From Eubacteriales bacterium (GTDB taxonomy: Bacteria > Bacillota > Clostridia > Oscillospirales > JAAYXM01): DNA of 64,000 nucleotides. Below the pieces are notes generated by a model that saw only the letters and a list, made by a program, of their open reading frames with translations, made no database searches and was not told the DNA's origin. This document shows, in pieces, positions 51,301 to 64,000 of this stretch (position 1 is its first letter; every line of letters begins with the position of its first letter). The translations under genes were made by a program, and so were the position numbers. The DNA is taken from NCBI GenBank assembly GCA_045595365.1, contig JAZOAI010000005.1:1198-65197 (forward strand). Direction: 5' to 3'.

Positions 51301-52344
51301 AGCGTAAATTATATAATCTACACCGGTGCCGTGAAAGATGCAACCGTCGGGGATTATATAAAGCTTCATCGCCGTGCTATGCAGCTTGGGATTCCGTGCC
51401 TTACCTCGCTTGACACCGCAAATGCGCTTGCGGATATAATAGAGAGCGGGTTCACTCTTGAAAATACAGAGCTTGTAGACATAAACTCAATGCGTCTGTG
51501 GCGCGAGAAAATTCATTTTGCAAAGATGCACTCCTGCGGAAACGACTATATATTCATAGAGAATTTTGACGGCAGGCTCACCTGCGCAGAATCTCTGTGC
51601 GTAAACCTCTGTCGCGAGCATTTCGGAATCGGAGCCGACGGAATTGTTCTTATAGAACGCTCGGGAAAAGCTGATGCAAAGATGAGAACCTTCAACCGCG
51701 ACGGCAGCGAGGGCAAAATGGCGGGCAACAACATCCGCTGTGTTGCAAAATATCTCTATGATAAGGGATATGTGAGAAGTGAAAACCTCTCTGTTGAAAC
51801 GGCAAGCGGAGTATACCGCATGAAGCTGTATTTAAGAGATGGGGTTGTCAATTCCGTTTCCGTAAATATGGGAAAGGCAAACCTTGATGCAAAGGTTGTC
51901 CCGGTTTCGTGTGAGATGCAAAAAATGATAAATTCACCAATTGACATTTGCGGAGAGACTTATAACGCAACGTGTCTCTCGGTAGGAAACCCTCATTGTG
52001 TGGTGTTTGCAAACGCAATCGACGGCTTGAATCTCGGCGAGATTGGGCCCCGTTTTGAAAAGTCGGAGCTTTTCCCCGAGGGGGTAAACACCGGGTTTGT
52101 CAGAGTTATCGACAGAACAACGCTTCGCGTTCGCATCTGGGAGCGCGGAAACGGCGAAACCCTTGCCTGCGGAACGGGCGCCTGCGCTGCCGCAGTTGCC
52201 GCGGTCGAAAACGGCTTCTGTGATAAGGGAGCAGATATAACCGTCAAGCTTCCCGGTGGCGATCTTACGGTAAACTATACCGACGAGAGAATTATCCTTT
52301 CCGGCAGCGCCGTTTTGGTGTTTGAAGGCGAATTTGAATATTAA
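48310..52344 (+). CDS. carB: Carbamoyl-phosphate synthase large subunit fused to C-terminal DapF-like epimerase domain
   Basis: GSGPIVIGQAAEFDY, two ATP-grasp halves, MGS domain; from ~51511 FAKMHSCGNDY, GNPHCV, ERGNGETLACGTGACA. Confidence 0.95.
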   Translation: MPKDNTISKVLVIGSGPIVIGQAAEFDYAGAQACRVLREEGINVVLVNSNPATIMTDKSLADEIYLEPLNCDTVRRIIAKERPDGLLAGLGGQTGLTIAMQLFRDGTLDKYNVRLLGTDVDAIETAEDRELFRNAMRDIGKPCVPSEVTDNVDGALSIAEEIGYPVIVRPAFTLGGSGGGIADTKEELSVIAKSGLDMSPITQILVEKCISGWKEIEFETMRDASGNAIAVCSMENIDPVGVHTGDSIVAAPALTLTEAEYDMLYKASLDIVSSIGIIGGCNCQFALKPDSMEYAVIEVNPRVSRSSALASKATGYPIAKITTKIALGYSLDEIKNDMTDKGSVFFEPKVDYVVVKFPKWPFDKFAESDRKLGTQMKATGEVMAIGGSFEEALMKAVRGAEISLDTLNAAPLSEKTVTERLSEQNDRRIFTVFEALKTGVSIDEIYEITKIDKWFLNKLLKLSDFEKKLEAEGVSEENYLRAKELGYTDKAISEITGETKLPEFSSSYKKVNTCRDGAPAVKSYFYSSANGACEARAEKRSGKPVVMVLGSGPIRIGQGIEFDYSSVHCVWTLRNMGYDVVIVNNNPETVSTDYDTADRLYFEPLTPEDVMNIIRVENPIGVVVAFGGQTAIKLTKFLDDAGVKILGTSAESIDMAEDRARFDALLEQFSIKRPKGMGVLTIDAALSAAESFGYPVLLRPSYVIGGQNMTISRSDEQTKRYMQTILSGKIENPVLVDKYMPGTELEVDVISDGEDVLIPGIMEHIERAGVHSGDSIAVYPPYNLSDKFLKKICDCSEKLALAMKTKGLVNIQYLIYDNELYVIEVNPRASRTVPYISKVTNVPMVDIASRVMLGEKLADMGYGTGLYRTPPYFAVKVPVFSFEKLNDVNSILGPEMKSTGEVLGIGKTTAEALFKGLTAAGFTVPSARGDKTPGVLISVEENDYQEVISVAKRFYDSGIRLFATRGTASAIADAGIQVTSVENAEEGDGATRLMESGSVNYIIYTGAVKDATVGDYIKLHRRAMQLGIPCLTSLDTANALADIIESGFTLENTELVDINSMRLWREKIHFAKMHSCGNDYIFIENFDGRLTCAESLCVNLCREHFGIGADGIVLIERSGKADAKMRTFNRDGSEGKMAGNNIRCVAKYLYDKGYVRSENLSVETASGVYRMKLYLRDGVVNSVSVNMGKANLDAKVVPVSCEMQKMINSPIDICGETYNATCLSVGNPHCVVFANAIDGLNLGEIGPRFEKSELFPEGVNTGFVRVIDRTTLRVRIWERGNGETLACGTGACAAAVAAVENGFCDKGADITVKLPGGDLTVNYTDERIILSGSAVLVFEGEFEY

Positions 52345-52347
52345 AAC

Positions 52348-52383
52348 AAAAAAAGAGATGTGGCTTATGCCACATCTCTTTTG
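52348..52383. terminator. Bidirectional terminator
   Basis: aaaagagatgtggc/gccacatctctttt. Confidence 0.9.
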
Positions 52384-52392
52384 CTACATTTG

Positions 52393-53571
52393 TTATTTTG
52401 AAGCTTTGAGAATTTCAACTTTGTCGAGCCTTTCCCAGGGAAGGTCAAGGTCGTTTCTTCCAAAGTGACCGTATGCTGCCGTCTGCTTGTAAATCGGGCG
52501 GCGGAGGTCAAACTGCTCTATAATCTTGAGAGGGCGCATATCAAAGTTTTCCATAACAATCTGCGAGAGCTTTTCGTCAGACAAAACGCCGGTGCCGAAG
52601 GAATCAACGAAAACAGAAACCGGGTTTGCAACGCCTATTGCATAAGCAAGCTCAATTTCGCAACGCTCAGCAAGCCCTGCCGCAACAATGTTTTTGGCAA
52701 TATATCTTGCCATATATGCAGCACTTCTGTCAACCTTTGTCGGGTCCTTGCCGGAGAAAGCGCCACCGCCGTGGCGGGCAAAGCCGCCGTATGTGTCGAC
52801 GATAATCTTGCGCCCGGTGAGTCCCGAGTCGCCGTGAGGCCCGCCGATTACGAAACGGCCTGTCGGATTGATGAGGAATTTCGTGTCTTTGTCGATTAAT
52901 TCCTCTGGCATAACGGGGAGAATAACGTGTTTCTTAACGGCCTCGCGGAGAGCTTCAAGCGAGATTGTGTCAAGGTGCTGGGTTGAAACAACGATAGTAT
53001 CACAGCGCTTTATCTTGTTCCCGTCATACTCAAACGTAACCTGGGACTTTCCGTCAGGACAGAGAAAATCAAGCTCGCCGGATTTTCTGACATCTGCAAG
53101 GCGCTTTGAAAGCTTGTGTGCATAGGTGATGGGGGCGGGCATAAACTCGGGAGTCTCGTTGCAGGCATAGCCGAACATCATTCCCTGATCCCCTGCGCCT
53201 ATCTTGTTTGCAATATCAGCGTTTGAGTCCTTAAACTCAAAGGAATTGTCAACGCCGAGTGCGATGTCAGCTGACTGCTCATCTATTGAAGAGAGAACAG
53301 CGCAGGTTTTTGAATCAAAGCCCATAAGCGGGTTGTTATAACCGATTTCGTCAATGGTCCTTCTGACCGTAGCGGGGATATCAACGTAACAGTCGGTTGA
53401 AATTTCACCCATAACAAGGGCCATGCCGGTCGTGACGATAGTTTCACACGCAACGCGTGCAGTTTTGTCCTGTTCAAGGATAGAGTCTAAAATTGCGTCG
53501 GAAATCTGGTCGCATACCTTGTCGGGATGCCCCTCTGTAACCGATTCTGATGTAAATTTATAAAGTGCCAT
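52393..53571 (-). CDS. metK: S-adenosylmethionine synthetase
   Basis: [28 protein letters not shown]. Confidence 0.99.
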
Positions 53572-53747
53572 ATCGAAAAACTCCAGACATATTTTTTATT
53601 ATAAAAATATAATACCAAATAATATGTCAAAAATCAATGTTTTTTGACTTCGTTTTCATAGTTGCCCGAGAAACTAACATATCAGAATAATTATGCCTCT
53701 TTCTGGAAAGGATAGTAATAAATTCTTGACAAAGAGAGGTTTGTTTT

Positions 53748-54416
53748 ATGTTCAAACACGAAAAACAGTTGTTTCATCCCGTAGAAGTAGAAAGACCCAA
53801 TCCACAATATGCCGCACTTTTGCAGGAACAGCTCGGCGGCGGAAACGGCGAGCTCAAGGCCGCGATGCAATATATGTCGCAGAGCTTCAGAGTAAAAGAC
53901 CCCGAAATTAAAGATTTGTTTCTCGATATAGCGGCAGAAGAACTCGGGCACATAGAAATGATTGCCCAGACGATAAACTTCTTAAACGGCCACGATGTAG
54001 ATGCAAGCAAAGTTCCCGCAGGAGAAATCCAGTCGCACGTCATACTCGGGCTGAATCCGGGGCTTATAAATGCATCGGGTTACTCCTGGACAGGCGACTA
54101 TGTAACCGTTACAGGTGATTTGTGTGCCGACTTGCTGTCCAACATAGCATCAGAGCAGAGGGCAAAGGTTGTGTATGAGTATTTGTACAGGCAGATTGAT
54201 GACAAAAAGGTAAAAGAAACAATAGATTTTCTCCTAAACCGCGAAGAGGCGCATAATCAGATGTTCCGCGATGCCTTCAATAAGGTTCAGGATACGGGCT
54301 CTAACCGCGATTTCGGAACGACAAAAGCGGCGAGAATGTATTTCAGTATGTCAAGCCCGTCTCCTGCGGGGAACAACAAATCGGAAGTCAACACAGAAAA
54401 ACCGTCATTCAATTAA
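53748..54416 (+). CDS. Manganese catalase family protein
   Basis: EQLGG..GEL.AAMQY, DIAAEELGH.E, REEAH. Confidence 0.92.
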   Translation: MFKHEKQLFHPVEVERPNPQYAALLQEQLGGGNGELKAAMQYMSQSFRVKDPEIKDLFLDIAAEELGHIEMIAQTINFLNGHDVDASKVPAGEIQSHVILGLNPGLINASGYSWTGDYVTVTGDLCADLLSNIASEQRAKVVYEYLYRQIDDKKVKETIDFLLNREEAHNQMFRDAFNKVQDTGSNRDFGTTKAARMYFSMSSPSPAGNNKSEVNTEKPSFN

Positions 54417-54421
54417 AAAAC

Positions 54422-54459
54422 AAAGGGCAGTGCATTTGTCAAATGCATTGCCCTTTTTG
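54422..54459 (+). terminator. Terminator after catalase
   Basis: aaagggcagtgcattt/aaatgcattgcccttttt. Confidence 0.85.
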
Positions 54460-54498
54460 TATAATTATGTTATAATGATTTCATCAAAGATGAAATCA

Positions 54499-54586
54499 AT
54501 GAATTGTCTTCGGCATGAATTGCACCCGTCGGTGCATAAAGGCAATTCATGTTGCTTGCAACAATTCATGGCTTTAGCCAATTCAT
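54499..54586. repeat. Branched palindromic repeat (2x ATGAATTG, 3x CAATTCAT)
   Basis: Octamers at 54499, 54515 and 54543, 54562, 54579, separated by mini-hairpins. Confidence 0.8.
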
Positions 54587-54622
54587 TAAAAAATAGTTGC
54601 ATCTAAATCGTTCACTGATTCT

Positions 54623-54685
54623 AAAGTTTGAAATGTTAGGGACAAAATTTTTATCCTGACTTGACAAAAGTCGAATTATGTCGAA
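54623..54685. repeat. Island repeat site copy 1 (GTTAGGGACAAAA followed by TTTTATCCTGACTTGACA..TGTCGAA)
   Basis: Shares core with copies at 57911, 58599 and 60294. Confidence 0.7.
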
Positions 54686-54768
54686 TGGTGGAGAAAAGTA
54701 AAAACAATTATATAATTTTAAAAGTATTAATTCTATGATGCAACTATATAAAATTTATGGAGGTATTT

Positions 54769-55089
54769 ATGTCTATGTTAAAGTGTCCAAATTGTGGGCA
54801 AGTATATAATGATGGTAACACATATTATTGTTTGAGATGTAATGTGAAATTACAATCAATAAATAATGTGAAAGAAATAAAAAATCCTGAATTAACAGAT
54901 GCTTCAAGTAGAGTAATAGGAACTATTAATCCTTCAGTACCAACAATAACATGTCCGTATTGTCAATCAACAGATTGCAAGAAAATTTCCGGATTATCAA
55001 AAGCGGGCAGTGTAGCATTATGGGGAATATTTGCTTTGGGGAAAACAGCAAAACAGTGGCACTGTAATAATTGTAAAAGTGATTTTTAA
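54769..55089 (+). CDS. Double zinc-ribbon hypothetical protein
   Basis: CPNC..CLRC and CPYC..CNNC with central hydrophobic Gly-rich segment; GGAGG RBS. Confidence 0.75.
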   Translation: MSMLKCPNCGQVYNDGNTYYCLRCNVKLQSINNVKEIKNPELTDASSRVIGTINPSVPTITCPYCQSTDCKKISGLSKAGSVALWGIFALGKTAKQWHCNNCKSDF

Positions 55090-55120
55090 GGTTTTCTTGA
55101 ACCTAAACTTACTGGTTTAA

Positions 55121-56290
55121 GTGTCATTTAAATGTAAGGATGTGAGTGGGTTGAATAATTTTGATTATGATACTTTTAAATTAAAATATGAAGATAAAAA
55201 AAGACGTACTTTTTTTGAGTATATTGAGGAAAATTTTGGTGAAACCGATAAAAAATATATTCTTGAAAATATGACCGAGGAACAAATTATATCTTCATTA
55301 GAGTATTACATATCCACGGGAATTAAGTATCAAATAACAGCTAATAATTATTTCACTTACTTAACCATATTGTTTGATGATTTGAATAAGTCGTATGGAA
55401 TTGTCAATAGAATATTTGTTGATAAGACTCTGTATGAAAAATTATCAGTTGTTGTTAAAGAAAAAGTGAAAAAATTAAATGAGAAGGAAATTAAAGAAAT
55501 CGCACCAGATGATATTTTTTATGTGGTTCAAGGAGATATCAGAAGCGAATTGAAGAGTCTTGTTAAAAACTTGAGTGAAGAAAAGACAGAATCATCGATT
55601 TTCAAACTTAAAAATGTTAGCAATTTAATGTCTTTGATTGCAATAAATTTAATTTTTGATTACGGGTTCAAAGGAAAGATCATAACCACCATAAAACTGA
55701 GTGATTATGATGTCAATAAAAATTCTCTTATCATAAATAATATTCAAATAAAACTTAGAGATATCTATCGAGAGGCTATAAGTATATATCTAAAACAAAG
55801 GGATCATATATTAGTTTCTAATAATGAAAAAACAGAGTATTTTTTTATTAACACAATAGGAAAGAGTTATACTGTTAATAAAACTCCAGATTATTCTGGA
55901 CTGTTTTCATATTTAAAAAATAACTACGGGCATGTGTCTACTAATCAATACGCTTACAATAAAATAATAAAATTTATTCATAAAGGTATTGATGTTATCA
56001 CTTTAAGTAAAATAACAGGGCATTCGTTAGAAAAAATTATACAGTTATTGGAGTATTATAACGAGGAAATCAAGAATCTTTCGCCGGGAGATTATTTTAA
56101 AAACTCTGAAAATGAGGAAGAAAAAATATATATCGATTCTATAGATGAAAGATTTATGATATGTCCAAATTGCAAAAGGAAAGTTTTATCAAATGCCAAT
56201 GAGTGGATCGTTGTAATATATGAAGATGAAAACATACCTAAATTAGTCTGTAGACATTGTGGGGGTAAAGATGAAAAAGATTATATTTAA
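55121..56290 (+). CDS. Degenerate tyrosine-recombinase-like protein with C-terminal Zn ribbon
   Basis: LIFDYGFK..I..IKLSDYD and KGIDVITLSKITGHS echo integrase boxes; CPNC..CRHC. Confidence 0.6.
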   Translation: MSFKCKDVSGLNNFDYDTFKLKYEDKKRRTFFEYIEENFGETDKKYILENMTEEQIISSLEYYISTGIKYQITANNYFTYLTILFDDLNKSYGIVNRIFVDKTLYEKLSVVVKEKVKKLNEKEIKEIAPDDIFYVVQGDIRSELKSLVKNLSEEKTESSIFKLKNVSNLMSLIAINLIFDYGFKGKIITTIKLSDYDVNKNSLIINNIQIKLRDIYREAISIYLKQRDHILVSNNEKTEYFFINTIGKSYTVNKTPDYSGLFSYLKNNYGHVSTNQYAYNKIIKFIHKGIDVITLSKITGHSLEKIIQLLEYYNEEIKNLSPGDYFKNSENEEEKIYIDSIDERFMICPNCKRKVLSNANEWIVVIYEDENIPKLVCRHCGGKDEKDYI

Positions 56291-56708
56291 AGAAAGTGCG
56301 TATAATTATTTGCCCATATACAGAGTTTTTGGGGATGAGAGTTTAGATGAAATTACATATAAAAACTACTTGGAAGATTTTCCGGAAGTGGAAAATATAA
56401 AAAAGGAAATTGTAATCAATCAAATAAAAAGAGTAAAGCCAATAGTAGACGCTTTAAAGGAAAAATACAATTATAAATGCCAGCTTTGTGGATTTAACTT
56501 TAAAATGAAGAATGGAAATGAATATTGTGAAGCACATCATTTAGTACAACTTTCTTTAGGCGGTAGTCAAAACCCTGAGAATGTTATAATTATTTGCCCT
56601 AATCATCATAGAATGTTACATTTTGCACAAGAAATCAAGTATAATTATATTTCAAATAAATTAGAATCGATACAAATAAATGATGAAAAATATTATGTGC
56701 AGAGATGA
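56271..56708 (+). CDS. HNH endonuclease
   Basis: YKCQLCG..CEAHHL..LSLGG..N...CPNHHRMLH. Confidence 0.9.
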   Translation: MKKIIFKESAYNYLPIYRVFGDESLDEITYKNYLEDFPEVENIKKEIVINQIKRVKPIVDALKEKYNYKCQLCGFNFKMKNGNEYCEAHHLVQLSLGGSQNPENVIIICPNHHRMLHFAQEIKYNYISNKLESIQINDEKYYVQR

Positions 56709-56826
56709 TTTTTCACTTCTAACTTAAAACGAACAATTTCTAATTAGATTGTCAGCGATATTGTACAGTCTTTATAGCAGACAGTATAGCTAGAAAGTGC
56801 AAAACTCTTTTACGGAGGTTATACAT

Positions 56827-57678
56827 ATGGATAATAAAATACAGATGTTTGAAGATAAAAGAATAAGAACTGCATGGAATGAAGAAACAGAAGAATGGTA
56901 TTTTTCTGTTGTTGATGTAGTGTCGGTTTTGACAGATAGTGCAGATGGAAGAAAATACTGGAACAAATTAAAGCAGAGATTAAAAGAAGAAGGAAATGAA
57001 ACGGTGACAAATTGTCACCAGTTGAAAATGACTGCAGCTGATGGAAAGAAAAGATTGACAGATGTTGCTGACACAGAACAACTTTTGCGAATCATACAAT
57101 CTATACCATCACCAAAAGCTGAGCCTTTTAAGTTGTGGTTAGCACAAGTAGGCAGAGAGCGAATTGAAGAAACCATTGACCCGGAACTAACAATAGAAAG
57201 AGCGCTTGAAACATATCTTAAAAAAGGTTATACACGAGAGTGGATAAATCAAAGATTACAAGCTATTCAGGTAAGAAAAGAACTTACAGATGAATGGGAT
57301 GCAAGAGGCGTTCAAAAGGGTGTTGAGTATGCAATACTCACAGACGAAATTACAAAAGCATGGGCAGGAATGACAACAAGAAAATATAAAAATCTCAAAG
57401 GTCTTACAAAAGAAAACTTAAGAGATAATATGAGCACCCTTGAACTTGTTCTCAATATGCTTGCGGAAGCAACAACCACAGAATTGTCAAAAAAGGAGCA
57501 ACCACAAAGTTTTGATGATAATATAAAAATTGCTCGTGAAGGTGGTTCCATTGCCGGAGATACAAGAAAAGCTATTGAAAAAAGAACAGGCGATTCAATA
57601 ATAACATCAAAAAATGCAACAGAGTTAAGTCAGGTTGTGGTTGATTTGATTGAAAATATATCAAAAGATGATGAATAA
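56827..57678 (+). CDS. Bro-N domain protein (phage antirepressor-like)
   Basis: IRTAW..EEWYFSVVDV, ADGKKR.TDVA, IQSIPSPKAEPFK.WLA. Confidence 0.9.
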   Translation: MDNKIQMFEDKRIRTAWNEETEEWYFSVVDVVSVLTDSADGRKYWNKLKQRLKEEGNETVTNCHQLKMTAADGKKRLTDVADTEQLLRIIQSIPSPKAEPFKLWLAQVGRERIEETIDPELTIERALETYLKKGYTREWINQRLQAIQVRKELTDEWDARGVQKGVEYAILTDEITKAWAGMTTRKYKNLKGLTKENLRDNMSTLELVLNMLAEATTTELSKKEQPQSFDDNIKIAREGGSIAGDTRKAIEKRTGDSIITSKNATELSQVVVDLIENISKDDE

Positions 57679-57693
57679 TAGAGGAGTTCCTGT

Positions 57694-57903
57694 ATGAGCA
57701 AAGAGGGGGAATTTTTAATCTTTTACATTGAGATATATAGGTCTGCAAAAAATCTAAAAGGAAAAGAAGTTATGCAGCTGTTTCAAAAATATAATGTCTG
57801 TGAATATATAATGGACTGTTATGGTGCATTGCATACCACCGGAACAAATTATATTATCAACGATATAGATTTGTATATTGAAGCAAGACAAGTTGCTGTG
57901 TAA
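57694..57903 (+). CDS. DUF3791 family protein
   Basis: F.IE.Y....L.G.EV..LF.KY...EYI...Y..LHT.G..YI..DI. Confidence 0.8.
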   Translation: MSKEGEFLIFYIEIYRSAKNLKGKEVMQLFQKYNVCEYIMDCYGALHTTGTNYIINDIDLYIEARQVAV

Positions 57904-57910
57904 AGAATAA

Positions 57911-57967
57911 ATTTTTTTGTCCCTAACTTGACAAAATCATAAAGTTTGATATGCAAAGGACAAAAAA
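57911..57967. repeat. Island repeat site copy 2 (imperfect palindrome)
   Basis: TTTTTTGTCC...GGACAAAAAA; first 33 bp identical to 58599-58631. Confidence 0.85.
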
Positions 57968-58013
57968 GCCTTCCCCTTGAGGGGAAGGTGGACCGCTTGC
58001 GGTGGATGAGGTG
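57965..58013 (+). repeat. REP-like palindrome, left arm
   Basis: ccttccccttgaggggaagg..gatgaggtg; inverted partner at 58541-58588. Confidence 0.85.
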
Positions 58014-58018
58014 GAAAG

Positions 58019-58540
58019 ATGATAATATTAATTACAGGTGCATCGCATACAGGTAAAACTGTTTTGGCACAGAAATTACTTGAAAAATATAAATTTCCTT
58101 ATCTGTCAATAGACCATTTGAAAATGGGATTGATTCGTAGCAAACAAACTGACCTTACGCCTATGAGTGAGGATGCAAAACTCACAAAGTATTTATGGCC
58201 TATTGTCCGTGAAATGATTAAAACCGCTATAGAAAACAATCAAAATTTAATTGTTGAGGGATGTTATATTCCTTTTAATTGGGAAAAAGATTTTGAAAAT
58301 GACTATCTAAAAAATATCAAATATTATTGTCTTGTAATGAGCCAAAACTATATCAAGCATCATTACAAAGATATAACAAAGTATGCGAGTGTGATTGAAA
58401 ATCGTTTGAACGATGAAGATTACACAATGGAAAGTGCTATTGAGGAAAACAGTTTAATTTTGGAACTGGCAGAAAAACACAATGTTCATTATATACTTAT
58501 TGATGATAAATATAGTGTAAATGTTGATTTAGAGTATTAA
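58019..58540 (+). CDS. P-loop kinase/AAA family protein
   Basis: ITGASHTGKT, SIDHLKMGLIRS, LIVEG. Confidence 0.85.
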   Translation: MIILITGASHTGKTVLAQKLLEKYKFPYLSIDHLKMGLIRSKQTDLTPMSEDAKLTKYLWPIVREMIKTAIENNQNLIVEGCYIPFNWEKDFENDYLKNIKYYCLVMSQNYIKHHYKDITKYASVIENRLNDEDYTMESAIEENSLILELAEKHNVHYILIDDKYSVNVDLEY

Positions 58541-58588
58541 CACCTCATCAGTCACTTCGTGACAGCTTCCCCTTGAGGGGAAGCCTTT
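58541..58588 (-). repeat. REP-like palindrome, right arm
   Basis: cacctcatc..cttccccttgaggggaag; starts immediately after the TAA stop. Confidence 0.85.
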
Positions 58589-58598
58589 GAAAAAACAT

Positions 58599-58661
58599 AT
58601 TTTTTTGTCCCTAACTTGACAAAATCATAAAAAAGATGTCGAATTATGTTAGGAATAAAAA
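58599..58661. repeat. Island repeat site copy 3 (CCTAAC...GTTAGG palindrome)
   Basis: TTTTTGTCCCTAACTTGACA...TGTCGAATTATGTTAGGAATAAAAA. Confidence 0.85.
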
Positions 58662-58666
58662 GCCTC

Positions 58667-59749
58667 GTCAGATTGTCAAGCCAAGTGCAACACTTTTTTT
58701 AATAAACTCCAAAGGAGATAAAAAGCCCAAGCATTTACGAGGTCTGTTATTGATTAATGAAACAACTGCATCCAATCTTTCCTGGGGAAGATTGCGAAAA
58801 TCAGTACCTCTTGGAAAGAAAAAACGAATTAAACCATTAATGTTTTCATTACTGCCTCTTTGCCACGGTGAATGGGAATCAGCGAAATAAACTGTTAAAT
58901 CGTTTTCTTTTTCGATGTCCCTAAAACCAAGAAACTCTGTTCCATTATCCAATGTAAGCGTTAAAGGTTTGATGACATCAGGTAGTTTTGAAAAAGCTTG
59001 TTTGAACGCTTGATTAATTACAGGAATAGTTTTATCTTCACATTTAGCAGCTATGAGTAGACGCGAACGTCTATCTATACCTGTTACAAGATAACCTTTT
59101 CCTACAGAACCGTAAATTGTATCTCCTTCAAAATCGCCAAAACGAGAACGATTATCTGAATCAATAGGTCTATCATGAATGGAACTGTCGAAGAATCGAG
59201 TGTAAGACTTTTTCTGATTAGAATAAGGCTTTGCCTTTCTTCTGAAATGTGCCCACGGTTTGATTCCCGGGAAGTTTCCTGATCTGACAGCACGATAAAT
59301 TGATGAAAAGGATAGTTTGTCAGAGTGTTCGGCATTCCATCTTCCTGCGATAATCTCGGGCGACCAATATTGAAGTAATCCATCAAACGTAAATTGATAC
59401 ATCTCTGCATTCAGGAGCAACTGACTCTTTCTGTGGCAGTCTTTTCTGCGACAAATATATTTGACATTTGCACCCCAAGCATGATAATGATTTTTCTTTT
59501 TGCTCCAATTTCGCTTGAGTTCTCGGCTTATTGTAGATGGGCTTCTGCCTAAAATCTCCGCAATTTGTCTACGACTTTTACCTTTCTTTAATAAATCTTG
59601 TAGACAAATTCGTTCATCTAGTGTAAAATGTGTATAAGACTTCATTCTTAACCTCCGTGTTGTTGTATTTGTGGTTATTTACATTTTACACTAAGGTAAG
59701 TATGAAGTCTATTCTTTTTTAGGTGTTGCACTTGATATTATAATCTGCC
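58667..59749 (-). mobile_element. IS30-family insertion sequence
   Basis: Terminal IRs CAGATTGTCAAGCCAAGTGCAACAC and CAGATTATAATATCAAGTGCAACAC around transposase. Confidence 0.93.
58668..59645 (-). CDS. IS30-family transposase
   Basis: HTH STISRELKRN, WSPE, GDFEGDT, DNGTEF, SPWQRGSNEN, NNRPRKCLG. Confidence 0.97.
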   Translation of the reverse strand: MKSYTHFTLDERICLQDLLKKGKSRRQIAEILGRSPSTISRELKRNWSKKKNHYHAWGANVKYICRRKDCHRKSQLLLNAEMYQFTFDGLLQYWSPEIIAGRWNAEHSDKLSFSSIYRAVRSGNFPGIKPWAHFRRKAKPYSNQKKSYTRFFDSSIHDRPIDSDNRSRFGDFEGDTIYGSVGKGYLVTGIDRRSRLLIAAKCEDKTIPVINQAFKQAFSKLPDVIKPLTLTLDNGTEFLGFRDIEKENDLTVYFADSHSPWQRGSNENINGLIRFFFPRGTDFRNLPQERLDAVVSLINNRPRKCLGFLSPLEFIKKSVALGLTI

Positions 59750-60176
59750 CCCCCTTGCCTAAAGGGGGCTGGCACCGCAGGTGACTGGGGGATTCATGGG
59801 AGGTGTCAGTCAAAGACTGACGGAGGGATTCTTTCACTGCATTATCAATGTACATACAACCCCCCTCAAAGTTTCTATTTACCTCGTTATTAGGTATTCT
59901 AATAATCGTCAAATTTCTTTTCTCAATTCTTTCTGTCCTGATTTTATCTTTTAACAATCCTTTTTCCTCATAATGCTGTGAACCATCAAGTTCAATAATT
60001 AATCTTGCACTATGGCAATAGAAATCAACTATATAATTATCAATTATCTTTTGTCTTAAAAAACTAACGGGATAACTTTTCAAGAAATCATACCAAAGAT
60101 GTCGTTCTTCTTTTGTCATATTCTTTCTCAATGTTCGTGCATTTGTTGTTAATTCTGTGTTATGCTTTCTATCCAT
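59709..60176 (-). CDS. DUF559 (Vsr-like) endonuclease; C-terminus reads through repeats and IS end
   Basis: ARTLRKNMTKEERHLW, FLRQ..I..YIVDFYC, IELDGSQH. Confidence 0.9.
   Translation of the reverse strand: MDRKHNTELTTNARTLRKNMTKEERHLWYDFLKSYPVSFLRQKIIDNYIVDFYCHSARLIIELDGSQHYEEKGLLKDKIRTERIEKRNLTIIRIPNNEVNRNFEGGCMYIDNAVKESLRQSLTDTSHESPSHLRCQPPLGKGGQIIISSATPKKE
59747..59831 (+). repeat. REP-like palindromes at 3' side of DUF559
   Basis: ccccttgcctaaaggggg..gggggattc and gggaggtgtcag..ctgacggagggattc. Confidence 0.8.
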
Positions 60177-60179
60177 ATT

Positions 60180-60275
60180 GAATCCCCTCGCCACTTCGTG
60201 GTCCTCTCCCCTTTAGACAAGGGGCGCTTTTCTCCACCACCTTCGGTGGTTCCCCTCCCTTTAGGCAAGGGGGGC
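60180..60275 (-). repeat. Two REP-like palindromes at 5' side of DUF559
   Basis: gaatcccc..cccctttagacaagggg and ccctttaggcaaggggggc; inverted relative to 59747 copy. Confidence 0.8.
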
Positions 60276-60293
60276 ATTTTTCTTTCGCCAATT

Positions 60294-60337
60294 TTCGACA
60301 TCCTTACTATGATTGTGTCAAGTCAGGGACAAAAAAT
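60294..60337 (-). repeat. Island repeat site copy 4 (inverted)
   Basis: Reverse complement TTTTTTGTCCCTGACTTGACACAATCATAGTAAGGATGTCGAA. Confidence 0.85.
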
Positions 60338-60339
60338 GT

Positions 60340-60391
60340 TGTAGGGGACATTCACGAATGTCCCGCGGGCGATTCTTGAATCGCCCCTACA
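60340..60391. repeat. GTAG-type REP doublet
   Basis: tgtaggggacattcacgaatgtccc/gggcgattcttgaatcgcccctaca. Confidence 0.8.
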
Positions 60392-60458
60392 TTTTAACCC
60401 TTACATCTCATCCTTTATCAGGGATGTAAGGTTTGGATGCAAAGATTTCAAAGGCTTT

Positions 60459-60481
60459 GGCAGATTGTCAAGCCAAGTGCA
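60459..60481 (+). mobile_element. Orphan IS30 terminal IR
   Basis: GGCAGATTGTCAAGCCAAGTGCA; 21-bp core identical to 58669-58689. Confidence 0.85.
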
Positions 60482-60524
60482 TATACCCTCAAGAATTTCT
60501 TGGGGGTTTTATCTCTAATCACTC

Positions 60525-62255
60525 CTATTCAAAAAAATCGTTATCTCTGAACTGAAGCGAATATAACTTTTTATACATTCCGCCTTTTTCCATAAGCTGC
60601 TCGTGTGTTCCGCGTTCCAGAATTTGCCCCTCTGTCACCACAACAATTTCATCGGCGTTTCTGATTGTTGAAAGACGATGTGCCACGACTAATGTTGTTC
60701 TGCCTTTGCAAAGCTCGTCCAACGCTTGCTGAATTAAAACCTCCGTAGTATTATCAAGTGCGCTTGTAGCTTCATCAAGAATAAGAATGGCGGGATCTTT
60801 CAAAAACACCCTTGCTATACTTATTCTCTGCTTCTGACCGCCCGAAAGCTTGACTCCACGCTCACCGATTTCAGTATCATAGCCGTTTTGAAGGGTTAAA
60901 ATATATTCATGAATATTTGCCTTTTTCGCCGCTTCAAAAATTTCTTCGTCTGTTGCATCAGGTCTGCCGTACAAAATATTTTCTTTTATTGTCCCCGCAA
61001 AAAGAAAAACATCCTGCTGAACAATGCCAATACATTTTCTGACAGACTCTAACGTGAGGTCTCGAATATTTTTATTGTCAATTAAAATTTCTCCGTCGCC
61101 TTCCAGCTTATAAAAATTCGGAAGCAAATGACAGATTGTGGTTTTTCCGCCGCCTGACGGGCCCACAAGTGCAAGCTTTCTCCCCTTTTCTATTCTCATG
61201 CTCACATTATGCAGCACTTCTTTTGTTGTATCATACGTAAATGAAACATTTCTAAACTCAATATTGCCCTCAACATTTTCAAGCACAACAGCAGCATCGC
61301 TATCGGCCTCAGGCTCTTCTTCCATTATTTCAACAAAACGTTTAAATCCGCTTACACCGTTTTGGAATTGCTCCATAAATCCTATAAGAGTTGTTACCGG
61401 ATTTATAAATAAATTCACCGAAACGATAAATGTAGAATAATCACCGAACGAAATACGGCCTGAGTACAAAAACAATCCGCCCGCGATCAAAATAATTACG
61501 TTAAAAATGTCTGTAATAAATGTTGTTGACGAATGAAATTTCGCCATTGCCGAATATGCCCTTTTTGATGAATCTACAAACTCCTTATCTCCTTTTTTAA
61601 ACTTGTCTATTTCAAGTTCGCAGTTAGTGTATGCCTTTGTTACCCTTATTCCCGTTATACTGCTTTCTACCGCAGCATTTATCGTTGCATTGCTTTTTCT
61701 TCTGTCCGAAAAAGCTGTTTTCATAGCTTTTCTGTAATGTGCAGTTACAATAATCAAAATCGGAACACAAGCAAAAATAATTAAAGTAAGTATAACATCG
61801 ATACTTAAAAGGTAGCTAAATGACAAAATAATCATAACCGTGCTGATTAAAATGTTTTCGGGACCGTGGTGAGCAAGCTCACAAACCTCAAACAAGTCGC
61901 TGGTAATTCTTGTCATAATTCTGCCGGTCTCGTTGTTATCATAAAACTTATAAGGTAATTTTTGTAAATGCTTAAATAAATCCACTCTCATTTGTGATTG
62001 CATTTTCACACCTATGATATGGCCGTAATACTGCACAAAATATCTTAAAAACAATCTTATAATATACAAAACAAGCACAATAATTCCCGCAAATACTATG
62101 GTTTTGTACATTTTATTCGGTATATAATTGTTAAGCATTTTGTTTGTAACGACCGGATAAACCATCCCCGTCAACGATATCAAAAGTGCTGCAAGCATAT
62201 CAAGTGCAAGCATTTTTTTGTGTGGTCTGTAATAACTTATAAACTTCTTCAGCAT
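60525..62255 (-). CDS. ABC transporter ATP-binding/permease (multidrug exporter type)
   Basis: TM domain with ELAHHGPE; [25 protein letters not shown]. Confidence 0.95.
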   Translation of the reverse strand: MLKKFISYYRPHKKMLALDMLAALLISLTGMVYPVVTNKMLNNYIPNKMYKTIVFAGIIVLVLYIIRLFLRYFVQYYGHIIGVKMQSQMRVDLFKHLQKLPYKFYDNNETGRIMTRITSDLFEVCELAHHGPENILISTVMIILSFSYLLSIDVILTLIIFACVPILIIVTAHYRKAMKTAFSDRRKSNATINAAVESSITGIRVTKAYTNCELEIDKFKKGDKEFVDSSKRAYSAMAKFHSSTTFITDIFNVIILIAGGLFLYSGRISFGDYSTFIVSVNLFINPVTTLIGFMEQFQNGVSGFKRFVEIMEEEPEADSDAAVVLENVEGNIEFRNVSFTYDTTKEVLHNVSMRIEKGRKLALVGPSGGGKTTICHLLPNFYKLEGDGEILIDNKNIRDLTLESVRKCIGIVQQDVFLFAGTIKENILYGRPDATDEEIFEAAKKANIHEYILTLQNGYDTEIGERGVKLSGGQKQRISIARVFLKDPAILILDEATSALDNTTEVLIQQALDELCKGRTTLVVAHRLSTIRNADEIVVVTEGQILERGTHEQLMEKGGMYKKLYSLQFRDNDFFE

Positions 62256-62297
62256 TACTTTACCCCATTTCTTAAATCTGTTTACTTCTTTTTTGTA

Positions 62298-63461
62298 TTA
62301 ATTTATGCCCAGTAAAGCTTCTGCAAAGGTTTTTAGTTTTTCGATTGAATCGGAAAGAACCTTCCCTTGTGCATAATTCTGTTTTCCGCCACCCTTTCCC
62401 TCAAAGGCGTCGTTAAGCTTCTTCACTATCGGTCTTATATCATACCGATGGCTACTCACAACGTATATATAGCTCTCGCCATCACTTTTTGAGAAAAGAA
62501 GCGCGATATCCGCACCCTCACCGGAAAGCATATTTGCACAATGGCGAAGCTCGTCGTATGACAAATTTTCGGAGAAGGCATAGGCCGAGTTGTTTACTCT
62601 GACGGGAGATAACTCGCTCCAGGCAAGCCGACACAAAAGTTCTTTGTTTTCGCGGCGGAGTGAGTCTGCAAGCTCCACCTGTCGCTTCGCGGCGTCGGAA
62701 ACCGCTTCCCTTGAAACAGAGAGGGTTTTCATCATCTGCTTATTCGAATAATTGAGCATTGAATAATCGCGCAGCGCCTCATACCCTGCGAGTACGGTCA
62801 GGCGCGTTCCCCCTTTATTCGGAGTTGCATCAATAATCTTAACAAGGCCTATCTCCCCCGTTTTGGCAACGTGCGGGGCACAGCAGGCGCAACAATCAAT
62901 GCCCTCTACCATAACAAGCCGAAGATTTTCGATGTTTTCAAGTTTGCTTCTGTACGAAATTCTTTGCGCTTCTTCATCAGTTGGATAAAAAGCTGTAATT
63001 GCAAGGTTTTTCCATAGTGTAAAGTTTACTTCCTTTTCAGTTCTTTCTATATCAGACTGCGTAAGCGCACCGTCAAAATCAACAGTCATTTCAGATTCGC
63101 TCATATGAAAACCGACGTTGTTATATCCGAAAAGAGAGTGGACTATTCCCGAAAGGATATGCTCTCCCGAATGGCGCTGCATACGGCAAAAGCGCAAGGG
63201 CCAGTCAATCCATCCCGTGACCTTTTCGCCGCAAGAAAATGCAGTGGCAATCTTGTGAATAACAACGCCATCACTTATCTGAACATCAATCACTTCTTCA
63301 CCGTCAATCGTTCCTTTGTCGGGAGCTTGTCCACCACCCTCGGGGAAAAATGCAGTTCGGTCGAGCACAACATCATATGCGCCGCCGTTTTCAGCACACG
63401 AAATGACCGTTGCCTCAAACTCATAACAGTATGAATCTTTCTCGTAAAGCTTTTCTGTCAT
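62298..63461 (-). CDS. Alanyl-tRNA editing protein AlaX with DHHA1 domain (start approximate)
   Basis: TAFFPEGGGQ..D.G, MQRHSGEH, CCAPH, GKGGGK..AQG. Confidence 0.9.
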   Translation of the reverse strand: MTEKLYEKDSYCYEFEATVISCAENGGAYDVVLDRTAFFPEGGGQAPDKGTIDGEEVIDVQISDGVVIHKIATAFSCGEKVTGWIDWPLRFCRMQRHSGEHILSGIVHSLFGYNNVGFHMSESEMTVDFDGALTQSDIERTEKEVNFTLWKNLAITAFYPTDEEAQRISYRSKLENIENLRLVMVEGIDCCACCAPHVAKTGEIGLVKIIDATPNKGGTRLTVLAGYEALRDYSMLNYSNKQMMKTLSVSREAVSDAAKRQVELADSLRRENKELLCRLAWSELSPVRVNNSAYAFSENLSYDELRHCANMLSGEGADIALLFSKSDGESYIYVVSSHRYDIRPIVKKLNDAFEGKGGGKQNYAQGKVLSDSIEKLKTFAEALLGIN

Positions 63462-63496
63462 ATTTCTCATCTCTCTTTCAGAATTCATCCCATTTT

Positions 63497-63528
63497 AATG
63501 CTGACAAGGTTAAGACCTTGTCAGCATT
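63497..63528. terminator. Strong hairpin between nagA and alaX
   Basis: aatgctgacaaggt/accttgtcagcatt. Confidence 0.55.
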
Positions 63529-63588
63529 CAGAAAACCGCCTTAGGGTCATTTATAGTCTTTACCATACGAACACATTCAGGTTCGCGT

Positions 63589-64000
63589 TCAGCAATCATA
63601 ATTTTCCCCTTTGTATCTTACCTCTCCGCCCAAGATTGTCATAACAACATTGAACTTCTCGTCGGCAATTATTATATCAGCTCGTTTTCCCTCATCAAGA
63701 GAACCGATTTCCCCGTCTTCTCCCATAGCTGTTGCAGGGTTTAAGGATGCACACCTCACAGCTTCAAACAGTTCAAGGTCAGAATTTTCATAAAGATTGA
63801 AAACCGCCTCATTAAGCTTAAGAACACTGCCTGCAATAGTGCCGTCGGGCAGTAAACACTTGATTCCCTCTTTATGTAGCGGCTGCCCGCCGAGAGTATA
63901 GTCACCGTCAGGCATCCCTCCGGCTCTTATGCAGTCGGTAATCAAACAAAGCTTATCATCTTTGATTTTGGCAAGCAGCCCGAAAAGGCCTTTATCCACA
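63589..64000 (-). CDS. nagA: N-acetylglucosamine-6-phosphate deacetylase, C-terminal part (5'-truncated by window)
   Basis: LITD....G..DG.Y.LGG, GTIAGS, ASLNPA, GSL..GKRAD. Confidence 0.9.
   Translation of the reverse strand, partial: VDKGLFGLLAKIKDDKLCLITDCIRAGGMPDGDYTLGGQPLHKEGIKCLLPDGTIAGSVLKLNEAVFNLYENSDLELFEAVRCASLNPATAMGEDGEIGSLDEGKRADIIIADEKFNVVMTILGGEVRYKGENYDC

Follow-up and report, generated by a model that had tools for sequence, protein, structure and literature searches.

A recurring 30-nt module in an AT-rich island of an uncultured Clostridia genome, a putative head of a propagated promoter family

The AT-rich island and the copies of its repeat

The 64,000-nt stretch of contig JAZOAI010000005.1 (assembly GCA_045595365.1) analysed here, referred to below as the window, comes from a Eubacteriales bacterium and contains an AT-rich island (26-38% G+C, against 44-51% to its left) in which a short repeat recurs between small genes. 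A preliminary description of the sequence had taken this repeat for a recombination site with an integron-like architecture. The repeat is real, and what was first observed of it was partly confirmed. As to its nature, it is not an integron recombination site; with somewhat better than even confidence we take it for the head of a propagated family of sigma-A promoters, set in a mosaic of intergenic modules that are used again and again. The first interpretation is therefore partly supported: the modular, variable architecture and the observation of Spo0A boxes hold, and the recombination mechanism does not.

Read in this way, the intergenic regions of one uncultured family of gut Clostridia would be written in a small vocabulary of modules, comprising three heads (A, B and B2), two leaders, hairpin arms and hairpins resembling repetitive extragenic palindromic (REP) sequences. 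The A head, to which the repeat corresponds, would be the upstream half of a promoter, with a T-rich tract, TTGTCC as its -35-like element, a spacer of constant length (17 nt) and the initial bases of a -10. Leader i is read as one or two Spo0A-box-like TGNCGAA heptamers just past the -10 together with a ribosome-binding site, leader ii as a leader with the end ..AAGGGACAAAA, and the G+C-rich hairpin arms as flanks of small genes, such as those for a DUF559 protein and a P-loop kinase. The array in the window would then be an accessory island of five short transcription units, each with its own head, one of them split by an IS30-family insertion sequence (IS). Its features are given below; here and throughout, L-numbers are other loci with the site, G-numbers the genomes of relatives and C-numbers contigs of the genome to which the window belongs.

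54597-54647, plus strand: B2 head (TTGCAT 54597-54602, 17 nt, TCTAAA 54620-54625), then a type ii leader (..TTTGAAATGTTAGGGACAAAA); from a reading of the sequence
54648-54690, plus strand: truncated A-type copy, CCTGAC variant, then AGTCGAA (54669) and TGTCGAA (54679-54685); from repeat comparison
54757-56708, plus strand: three-gene unit encoding a zinc-ribbon protein (54757-55089), a protein of tyrosine-recombinase fold with a C-terminal zinc ribbon (55121-56290) and an HNH nuclease (56259-56708); from open reading frames (ORFs), Pfam and fold
56709-56795, plus strand: decayed A copy (56709-56734), then a B head (core from about 56753, where C5:57950 is window position 56753), ahead of the Bro-N gene
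56797-57903, plus strand: Bro-N gene (56797-57678) and DUF3791 gene (57694-57903); from Pfam
57912-57941, plus strand: canonical A module, with T-run, TTGTCC at 57917-57922, a 17-nt spacer containing TTGACA, and TA.. from 57940
57942-57967, plus strand: type ii leader, whose end ..AAGGACAAAAAA pairs with the T-run/GTCC of the A module to give an apparent palindrome
57968-58585, plus strand: hairpin-flanked mini-cassette with left arm (57968-58018), P-loop kinase gene (58019-58540) and inverted right arm (58541-58585); from repeats and Pfam
58600-58629, plus strand: canonical A module, second direct copy
58630-58667, plus strand: leader with TGTCGAA (58637-58643) and GTTAGGAA, interrupted by the IS
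58668-59747, minus strand: IS30-family IS, transposase 58668-59645 (HTH_38 and rve), 25-nt inverted ends
59709-60274, minus strand: DUF559 nuclease mini-cassette, gene 59709-60194, G+C-rich hairpin arms 59749-59796 and 60179-60274; from Pfam and repeats
60275-60307, minus strand: type i leader with tandem Spo0A-box-like heptamers, TGTCGAA (60300-60294), 3 nt, TGGCGAA (60290-60284)
60308-60338, minus strand: canonical A module (G variant), oriented toward the DUF559 gene
60343-60395, no strand assigned: REP-like double hairpin (GTAG..CTAC) abutting the A module

An exact 20-nt core of the repeat was found three times in the whole window, at 57914-57933 and 58602-58621 on the plus strand and at 60316-60335 on the minus strand, where 0.04 occurrences were expected and none of 100 shuffled sequences reached three. 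Both plus-strand cores are parts of a 42-nt direct repeat (93% identity, spacing 688 nt), the final 33 nt of which are identical (57911-57943 and 58599-58631) and, as originally described, bracket one gene module, that of the P-loop kinase (58019-58540). Four copies of the core had been counted in the island. Three of these are exact, but the copy at 54648 is only a gapped, truncated variant (82% over 22 nt) which lacks the ..ATCATA end and was missed in the window by a core search allowing up to three mismatches. The degenerate echo reported near 56709 was confirmed as a decayed copy, upstream of a second type of promoter. The outermost copies had also been likened to terminal inverted repeats, an unconvincing comparison over 22 nt at 82%; the inverted core (60335) pairs best with the copy at 58601, and it is these two that form a long inverted pair (58601-58643 with 60294-60336, 43 nt, 88%). 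TGTCGAA was correctly assigned to three copies, where it stands at a fixed offset (54679, 58637 and, on the minus strand, 60294-60300); window-wide the heptamer is not enriched, with 9 seen and 10.4 expected.

Several of the units and their heads recur elsewhere. The B2 head joined to leader ii is a combination present in 14 of 65 copies of leader ii, and the truncated A copy at 54648 sits within the leader of this B2 promoter, a composite of leader ii and a short A that is seen also in L059 and L067. The three-gene unit that follows is absent from the 143 other A-bearing loci and could be a small mobile or defence module; it was found with a different left flank in one metagenome contig. The long form ahead of Bro-N, in which a decayed A precedes B, is present in contig C11 and in L031, L086 and L236, and Bro-N and DUF3791 genes adjoin A copies elsewhere in 6/143 and 9/143 loci, respectively. 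One metagenome contig runs from the end of Bro-N into an A head without DUF3791, skipping 228 nt and carrying 5 other letters between (window 57678-57907). A Bro-N/A junction without DUF3791 is also found in L011, L115 and L132, and GAATAA stands at both edges of the difference.

The heads at 58601 and 60336 converge across the DUF559 unit, whose gene (59709-60194) is the sole DUF559 gene in the genome, and the IS30-family element lies between the first of these heads and the unit. The leader at 58630 that it interrupts is present uninterrupted in contig C33. At 60450-60481, at a distance of 1.8 kb, there is a lone copy of the left end of the element together with 10 bases of its flank (32 nt, 88%), and further partial copies occur at the ends of contigs C20, C22 and C37. 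This element has ends different from the site, which is not the end of a known IS.

The conserved block, its flanks and the genes behind it

A search of the genome and of its relatives for the core, as had been suggested at the outset, uncovered a family-wide repeat and not a one-off duplication. The genome (1.44 Mb, 43 contigs) holds 8 copies of the module on 5 contigs. A 17-mer with at most one mismatch is carried by 15 of 41 genomes (the genome itself and its relatives), namely by 10 of the 18 in the genus and by members of three other genera of the family and of one other family, while the reversed-pattern control had no match in any of the 41. With a 21-mer and up to three mismatches, 18 of the 32 genomes of the family were positive, and altogether copies are known from 5 of the 7 genera of the family and from one other family. 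An exact 25-mer, searched with one genome per species, gave at least 120 stretches, nearly all of them from uncultured Clostridia of animal guts; no copy of it was found in viral contigs. The only non-Clostridia label among the matches listed is that of L054, a 2.6-kb contig labelled as an alphaproteobacterial metagenome-assembled genome, which is probably a binning error rather than a transfer. The 13-nt core had no match as a text string in the literature, and a search of the literature on DUF559, inverted repeats and mobility in Clostridia gave nothing relevant among the papers listed.

In 139 unique instances we numbered the block from the first T of TTGTCC. The conserved block is about 30 nt long, from about -5 to +25, and consists of an A/T tract, a T-run, TTGTCC and CTAACTTGACAAAATCA, followed by TA; it ends in ..ATCATA, past which conservation falls sharply, and both edges are sharp. 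Since most loci were fetched by exact match, conservation within the 25-mer is partly by construction, a bias of which the block edges and the flanks are free. The block has 7-8-7 dyad symmetry, in which TTTTGTC and GACAAAA are separated by 8 nt.

Among the recurring families of upstream flanks are a 13-nt tandem repeat, a small hairpin, hairpins that are G+C-rich or REP-like, and the ends of DUF3791 and Bro-N genes. One and the same upstream flank precedes differing downstream sequences, and the converse was also seen. In L228 of genome G020 the 13-nt unit is repeated 5.2 times in tandem directly upstream of an A head (2093-2160), and two-copy versions of this unit are among the commonest upstream flanks. 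Downstream, 50 of the 139 instances continue into leader i (..GATTGTCGAA, 3-4 nt, ..GTCGAAAGGAG, then the start codon) and 15 into leader ii, which ends ..TTTGATATACAAGGGACAAAA; in the remaining 74 the downstream sequence is unrelated.

The site had been described in full as a palindrome of 55-60 bp. Such a palindrome arises only where the core adjoins one of the two leader types, because the T-run/GTCCCTAAC of the block has its complement in leader ii and in a variant of leader i that ends in GTTAGGAAC and an A-run; the A module with leader ii makes a palindrome of 54 nt. The right arm is present in only 15/139 instances, and in 47 of its 65 copies leader ii stands behind heads other than A, which hold no such complement. 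When eight copies or strands were folded as single-stranded DNA, only 57908-57972 beat its shuffles, on both strands (z -2.7 and -3.5), and the other six sequences folded no better than shuffles (z 0 to -1.1). Conservation concerns the sequence and not a structure, and the palindrome would be a by-product of an A head placed beside a leader with a chance-complementary end.

The relation of the block to genes is strongly directional. In 106/138 instances the next 200 nt downstream contain the start of a co-directional ORF of 50 aa or more that has a ribosome-binding site, as against 10/131 in the divergent control for gene-start orientation, and the distance from module to start codon has a median of 54.5 nt and a minimum of 15 nt. 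The 96 distinct downstream proteins represent 83 Pfam families, of which the commonest, DUF559, accounts for 6; they include a nitroreductase, SDR, GNAT, HAD, RelB and MATE family members, the recR product and a tRNA methyltransferase. Within the block, TTGTCC, 17 nt and TA(t/a)AA(a/t) form a -35-like/-10-like pair spaced within the sigma-A range of 16-18 nt, and the match is weak. The hexamer beginning at the last TA of the block was compared with TATAAT in the 74 instances with unrelated flanks, where on average 4.11 of its 6 positions agree (3.36 in TA-hexamers of the background). In 9/74 the hexamer is TATAAT itself, against 15/800 in the background, and five or more positions match in 29/74 against 83/800. 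No enrichment of TAnnnT was found at any other start position between 20 and 69. RNA polymerase would, on this geometry, start about 7 nt past position 29.

Other promoter geometries were considered. The TTGACA embedded in the spacer was rejected as a -35 because, as had been noted from the start, a -10 is missing at canonical spacing: there is no TAnnnT signal 16-18 nt after it. The consensus sequences of sigma-H, -D, -E, -K, -G and the extracytoplasmic function (ECF) sigma factors, compared by eye, were rejected for their unsuitable spacings. An extended -10 (TGnCAAAAT, with the start at the end of the block) is a further alternative and fits the minimum leader of 15 nt, but leaves unexplained both the TATAAT bias at positions 24-29 and the parallel with the B head.

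This second head is canonical, with TTGGCA, 18 nt and TATAAA or TATATA, and has the variant B2. Ahead of leader ii (65 copies) the heads are A in 18, B in 19, B2 in 14 and others in 14, and ahead of leader i (64 copies) A in 30, B in 16, B2 in 1 and others in 17, the share of A being inflated because the loci in this tally were chosen for carrying A. The joint between head and leader always falls within the -10. Two nitroreductase paralogues in G020 share one leader, the one behind A and the other behind a decayed A and B, and the kinase and DUF559 units are likewise found behind either head. In the long form, A deviates from its consensus in 6 of 7 examples, mostly in TTGACA or ..CATA, and the copy in L086 is intact; this decay fits relaxed selection, as would be expected if A is not the working promoter there.

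The leaders also bear on the control of these units. TGNCGAA occurs within 25 nt after the block in 37/139 instances, where about 1 is expected; for 33 of these the first base of the heptamer is at position 33. In 12 instances there is another TGNCGAA exactly 3 nt on, with T, G and A at the free position four times each. The sole tandem of the form TGNCGAA-N3/4-TGNCGAA in the genome is that at window 60284-60300, and the genome encodes Spo0A (Spo0A_C, 157.7 bits). Boxes placed just past a start site repress, as at Bacillus subtilis abrB, and by analogy with that arrangement Spo0A~P might bind the leader boxes and shut the units off. The likeness to Spo0A-repressed promoters of the abrB kind lies in the direct repeat of TGNCGAA with a 3-nt gap just downstream of the -10; in contrast to them, the boxes here belong to a copied leader module and not to a single regulatory gene, and the second box often breaks C4 (TGTTGAA six times, TGTAGAA three times). 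The box has a 7-bp core, TGTCGAA, with contacts at G2, C4 and G5 (PMC3485338). Since so many second boxes break C4, a Spo0A link to the leader boxes is plausible but unproven. The proposal that the sites may be tied to sporulation control survives in so far as the boxes stand at a fixed offset beyond chance in a genome that encodes Spo0A.

Several observations weigh against the block being a promoter head. The whole 30 nt, including the spacer, is the same in species with gene differences of 15-30%, which exceeds what a promoter needs and indicates copying or exchange, not selection alone. TTGTCC matches the -35 consensus at only 4/6 positions, the final T of the -10 is present in only 34-38% of instances, and none of the window's own hexamers (TAAAGT, TAAAAA and TAGTAA) was called by a simple consensus scanner. 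In degenerate copies the part that varies least is the perfect TTGACA of the spacer. In 6/106 cases, for example recR (L081) and a GNAT gene (contig C43), fewer than 20 nt separate the block from the start codon, and a transcript starting about 7 nt past position 29 would there lack a ribosome-binding site. The copy at trkA overlaps the end of the upstream ORF and precedes the gene's own promoter, which is kept in orthologues, and so is not the promoter of that gene. The dyad symmetry, moreover, would suit a dimeric protein. Among the sequencing runs compared, none covered half of the stretch. Both DNA and RNA libraries gave a high summed depth across the repeat bins, a comparison which is uninformative on transcription, as it was made on contigs only, with many organisms pooled; the RNA runs compared were assembled contigs, which cannot reveal RNA ends.

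The symmetry raises the possibility that the module is an operator for a dimeric regulator, with TTTTGTC and GACAAAA 8 nt apart and overlapping the promoter, and that the genes behind it form an accessory-gene regulon. The dyad is centred on the conserved block, its right half with TTGACA is the most constrained part, and the spacer is conserved beyond what sigma-A needs. However, apart from position 9, conservation in the central 8 nt equals that of the arms, an unusual state for an operator. Degenerate copies show free variation in the left arm, no common theme unites the downstream genes (83 families among 96 proteins), and no candidate regulator was identified. We regard an operator as quite improbable; it would in any case be compatible with a promoter head and not exclusive of it.

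Turnover of units and the readings by recombination

The presence of the block at orthologous genes is patchy. It lies ahead of trkA in 1/22 loci, that of the genome under study only, and ahead of the nitroreductase gene in 2/14 loci, in addition to one long form. In G020, whose trkA is the most similar to that of this genome, the island and the right flank are absent, and within the genus the flanks are too diverged and are not syntenic. Contig C33 and G003 share the gene upstream of the module and diverge past it. The genes on either side of the site vary between genomes, and gene content is not invariant.

The kinase and DUF559 genes each lie between inverted G+C-rich hairpin arms. The kinase mini-cassette is found in 9 other loci, and hairpin-armed units directly follow a head in about 11 loci and directly precede an A head in about 15; direct A heads on both sides of a unit were seen in three cases (the window, L132 and L072). 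Pairs of arms without a gene are present in contigs C33 (5830-5950) and C20 (139-255). Contigs of other organisms join the two kinase arms (58013/58014 to 58540/58541), with 14-26 other letters replacing the gene; joints of this kind, at 90% likeness with short sides, derive from other organisms' copies of the modules. Among the joints listed, none was a module-to-module deletion or circle joint. Neither empty sites nor target-site duplications were found in the 143 loci and the genome, and an exact 34-mer of the leader of the third copy had no match in metagenome_contigs. A cassette with ends ..GGGACAAAA and TTTTGTCCC.. inserting into a target was rejected, there being no empty sites.

These data bear on whether the module is a crossover site for cassette exchange, such that units of module, leader, gene and hairpin are moved by site-specific recombination or by homologous recombination that prefers the module. 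In favour of this are the joining of one upstream flank to different sequences past the module and the converse, the divergence of C33 and G003 after the module, the direct copies that bracket one unit in the three cases above, the dyad symmetry with sharp block edges, and the patchiness at trkA and nitroreductase orthologues. In contrast, no recombinase travels with the module, the recombinase-fold ORF of the island having no match in the 143 loci and the tyrosine recombinases of the genome lying on other contigs. Deletion or circle joints and empty sites are missing as described, the choice of A or G at position 9 is related to neither flank family, and the -10-like bias and the orientation of gene starts would need some other explanation. 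Units are, moreover, bounded by B as often as by A, so that the A sequence is not required. A crossover site thus appears quite unlikely. If the repeat is a promoter head, its modules could have spread and been reshuffled through recombination between copies, with no dedicated enzyme.

An intact tyrosine recombinase had been proposed as something to look for beside the site. The genome has four tyrosine recombinases (PF00589), none of them on this contig. Within the island the ORF at 55121-56290 (389 aa) has a tyrosine-recombinase fold, the top Foldseek matches of its model (pLDDT 64.5) being XerH, XerA, a staphylococcal integrase, Tn1549 Int and Cre, with E-values from 2e-4, and a protein atlas search gave a recombinase-fold lead as well. 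Its family is rare, with 6 members among 5.8 billion proteins, and no R..HxxR..Y catalytic set was evident in the family alignment as read by eye. With no relative in the 143 other site-bearing loci and no evident catalytic set, this ORF was rejected as the enzyme of the site, though its fold is real. The idea of dedicated recombination sites in a cassette-capture system is accordingly unsupported: the copies have promoter geometry, and no excised or empty form was seen.

The attC-like architecture first proposed fares worse still. Integron attC sites are bounded by the boxes RYYYAAC and GTTRRRY. The boxes of the repeat, CCCTAAC and GTTAGGA/GTTAGGG, resemble these loosely, and the four copies, separated by short genes, fall inside 5.7 kb, in the manner of an integron or of a cluster of attC sites lacking an integrase (CALIN); as in such arrays, short genes are split by a recurring site and the content varies between genomes. 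Both boxes are off consensus, however, CCCTAAC having C at the R position and GTTAGGA and GTTAGGG a purine at Y. The genome has no IntI (TIGR02249, best 64.2 bits against a cut-off of 265, with 14 control genomes likewise below). The right arm is missing from most copies, which also fail to fold, it being the sequence and not a hairpin that is conserved. The copies stand on both strands, two of the exact ones 688 nt apart on the plus strand and the third inverted, and each has promoter geometry, whereas integron cassettes rarely hold promoters according to a published survey, which asks for at least two sites on one strand within 4 kb and in which complete integrons were absent from Firmicutes (PMC4889954). 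On the features tested an attC identity of the sites is refuted, and we give a CALIN-like array next to no credence.

The hairpins abutting the module could point to a different kind of mobility. Each hairpin of the REP-like pair at 60343-60395 matches about 60 places in the genome, both strands counted. An ORF of 167 aa for an IS200-like Y1 transposase lies on contig C2 (26.5 bits), and two weak Y1 matches on C1 and C17 adjoin REP-like hairpins; these hairpins and the Y1 ORF could represent a Firmicute system resembling the REP doublets (REPINs) mobilised by REP-associated tyrosine transposases (RAYTs). The module itself might be a selfish or neutral mosaic fragment, akin to a REP sequence or a miniature inverted-repeat transposable element (MITE), which has no role in transcription and whose orientation reflects the insertion of a parent element. 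Its setting among REP-like hairpins that occur at tens of places, the short Y1 transposase ORF, the resemblance of the 54-nt palindrome with leader ii to a miniature element and the patchy presence would all suit such a fragment. Against it stand the lack of any target-site duplication or empty site in the loci and the genome, inverted arms of only about 12 nt, a -10-like bias that reaches into unrelated flanks, the observed distances to the start codon, with their minimum of 15 nt, and the deviation of A in 6/7 long forms with B. We consider a selfish fragment unlikely.

A small-hairpin array was also noted at 54468-54612 on the plus strand, right after a TATAAT, in which the hairpins are spaced by a repeated 8-mer and its complement; as RNA it folds at -41.3 kcal/mol (z -4.1). 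Look-alikes with other 8-mers follow A heads in L084, L112, L118 and L124, and in L206 and L208 they are placed between the trkA promoter and the start codon. A search of 52000-64000 against all Rfam families, with E up to 1, gave no match.

Relation to known systems and significance

The closest described concept is the putative mobile promoter (PMP) of Matus-Garcia, Nijveen and van Passel, for which near-identical upstream sequences were reported before unrelated genes, both inside one genome and across genera and families (PMC3575422). PMPs are defined by at least 80% identity over at least 50 nt, from -150 to -50, and their mode of movement is unknown (PMC3575422). As with PMPs, a similar sequence stands here before non-homologous genes, both within and between taxa. 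In contrast to them, the invariant block is only about 30 nt, spans -35 to -10, and is modular, with shared leaders and alternative heads; the block exceeds 50 nt only in those subsets where it is joined to leader i or ii or to recurring upstream modules.

Two further groups of intergenic repeats invite comparison. The Correia elements of Neisseria have 26-bp terminal inverted repeats and duplicate TA on insertion. In common with these and other promoter-bearing MITEs, the present repeats are short, intergenic, have inverted ends and would provide promoters for neighbouring genes; here, however, the arms measure about 12 nt, neither a duplication nor an empty site was found, and the majority of copies have a single arm. 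The bacterial interspersed mosaic elements (BIMEs) and the REPIN-RAYT systems of Proteobacteria are intergenic mosaics of hairpin and linker motifs, and they resemble the present regions in that a few such motifs are variously combined, in contrast to which we deal here with another phylum, other motifs and one linker-like motif with promoter geometry. Correia elements are themselves named among promoter-bearing elements in the work on PMPs (PMC3575422).

The analysis thus removes the reading of an integron in a Firmicute and puts in its place a countable case of a promoter reused by bacteria never yet cultured. A single 30-nt module stands before at least 83 gene families in many species, can be swapped with a second head, and is followed by a leader that resembles a Spo0A operator. 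The sharp seams of the mosaic are a place to look for how mobile promoters spread, a question of general interest (PMC3575422).

A broader proposal sees in the A and B heads the seams of a cassette system that needs no integrase, in which short self-expressing units, each made up of head, Spo0A-box leader, gene and hairpin terminator, are swapped at heads of about 30 nt, both inside genomes of this gut Clostridia family and from one to another, and their promoter is silenced at sporulation. We think this distinctly unlikely. Were it true, it would amount to a functional counterpart of integron cassettes in a Firmicute, the promoter being part of the cassette, and the lineage would keep shuffling a pool of accessory genes, each with a ready-made promoter. 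Should the promoter role and the Spo0A role both be true, the module would serve to mark those transcription units of these genomes that are accessory and have moved recently, and would offer a compact natural expression signal for a group that has no genetic tools.

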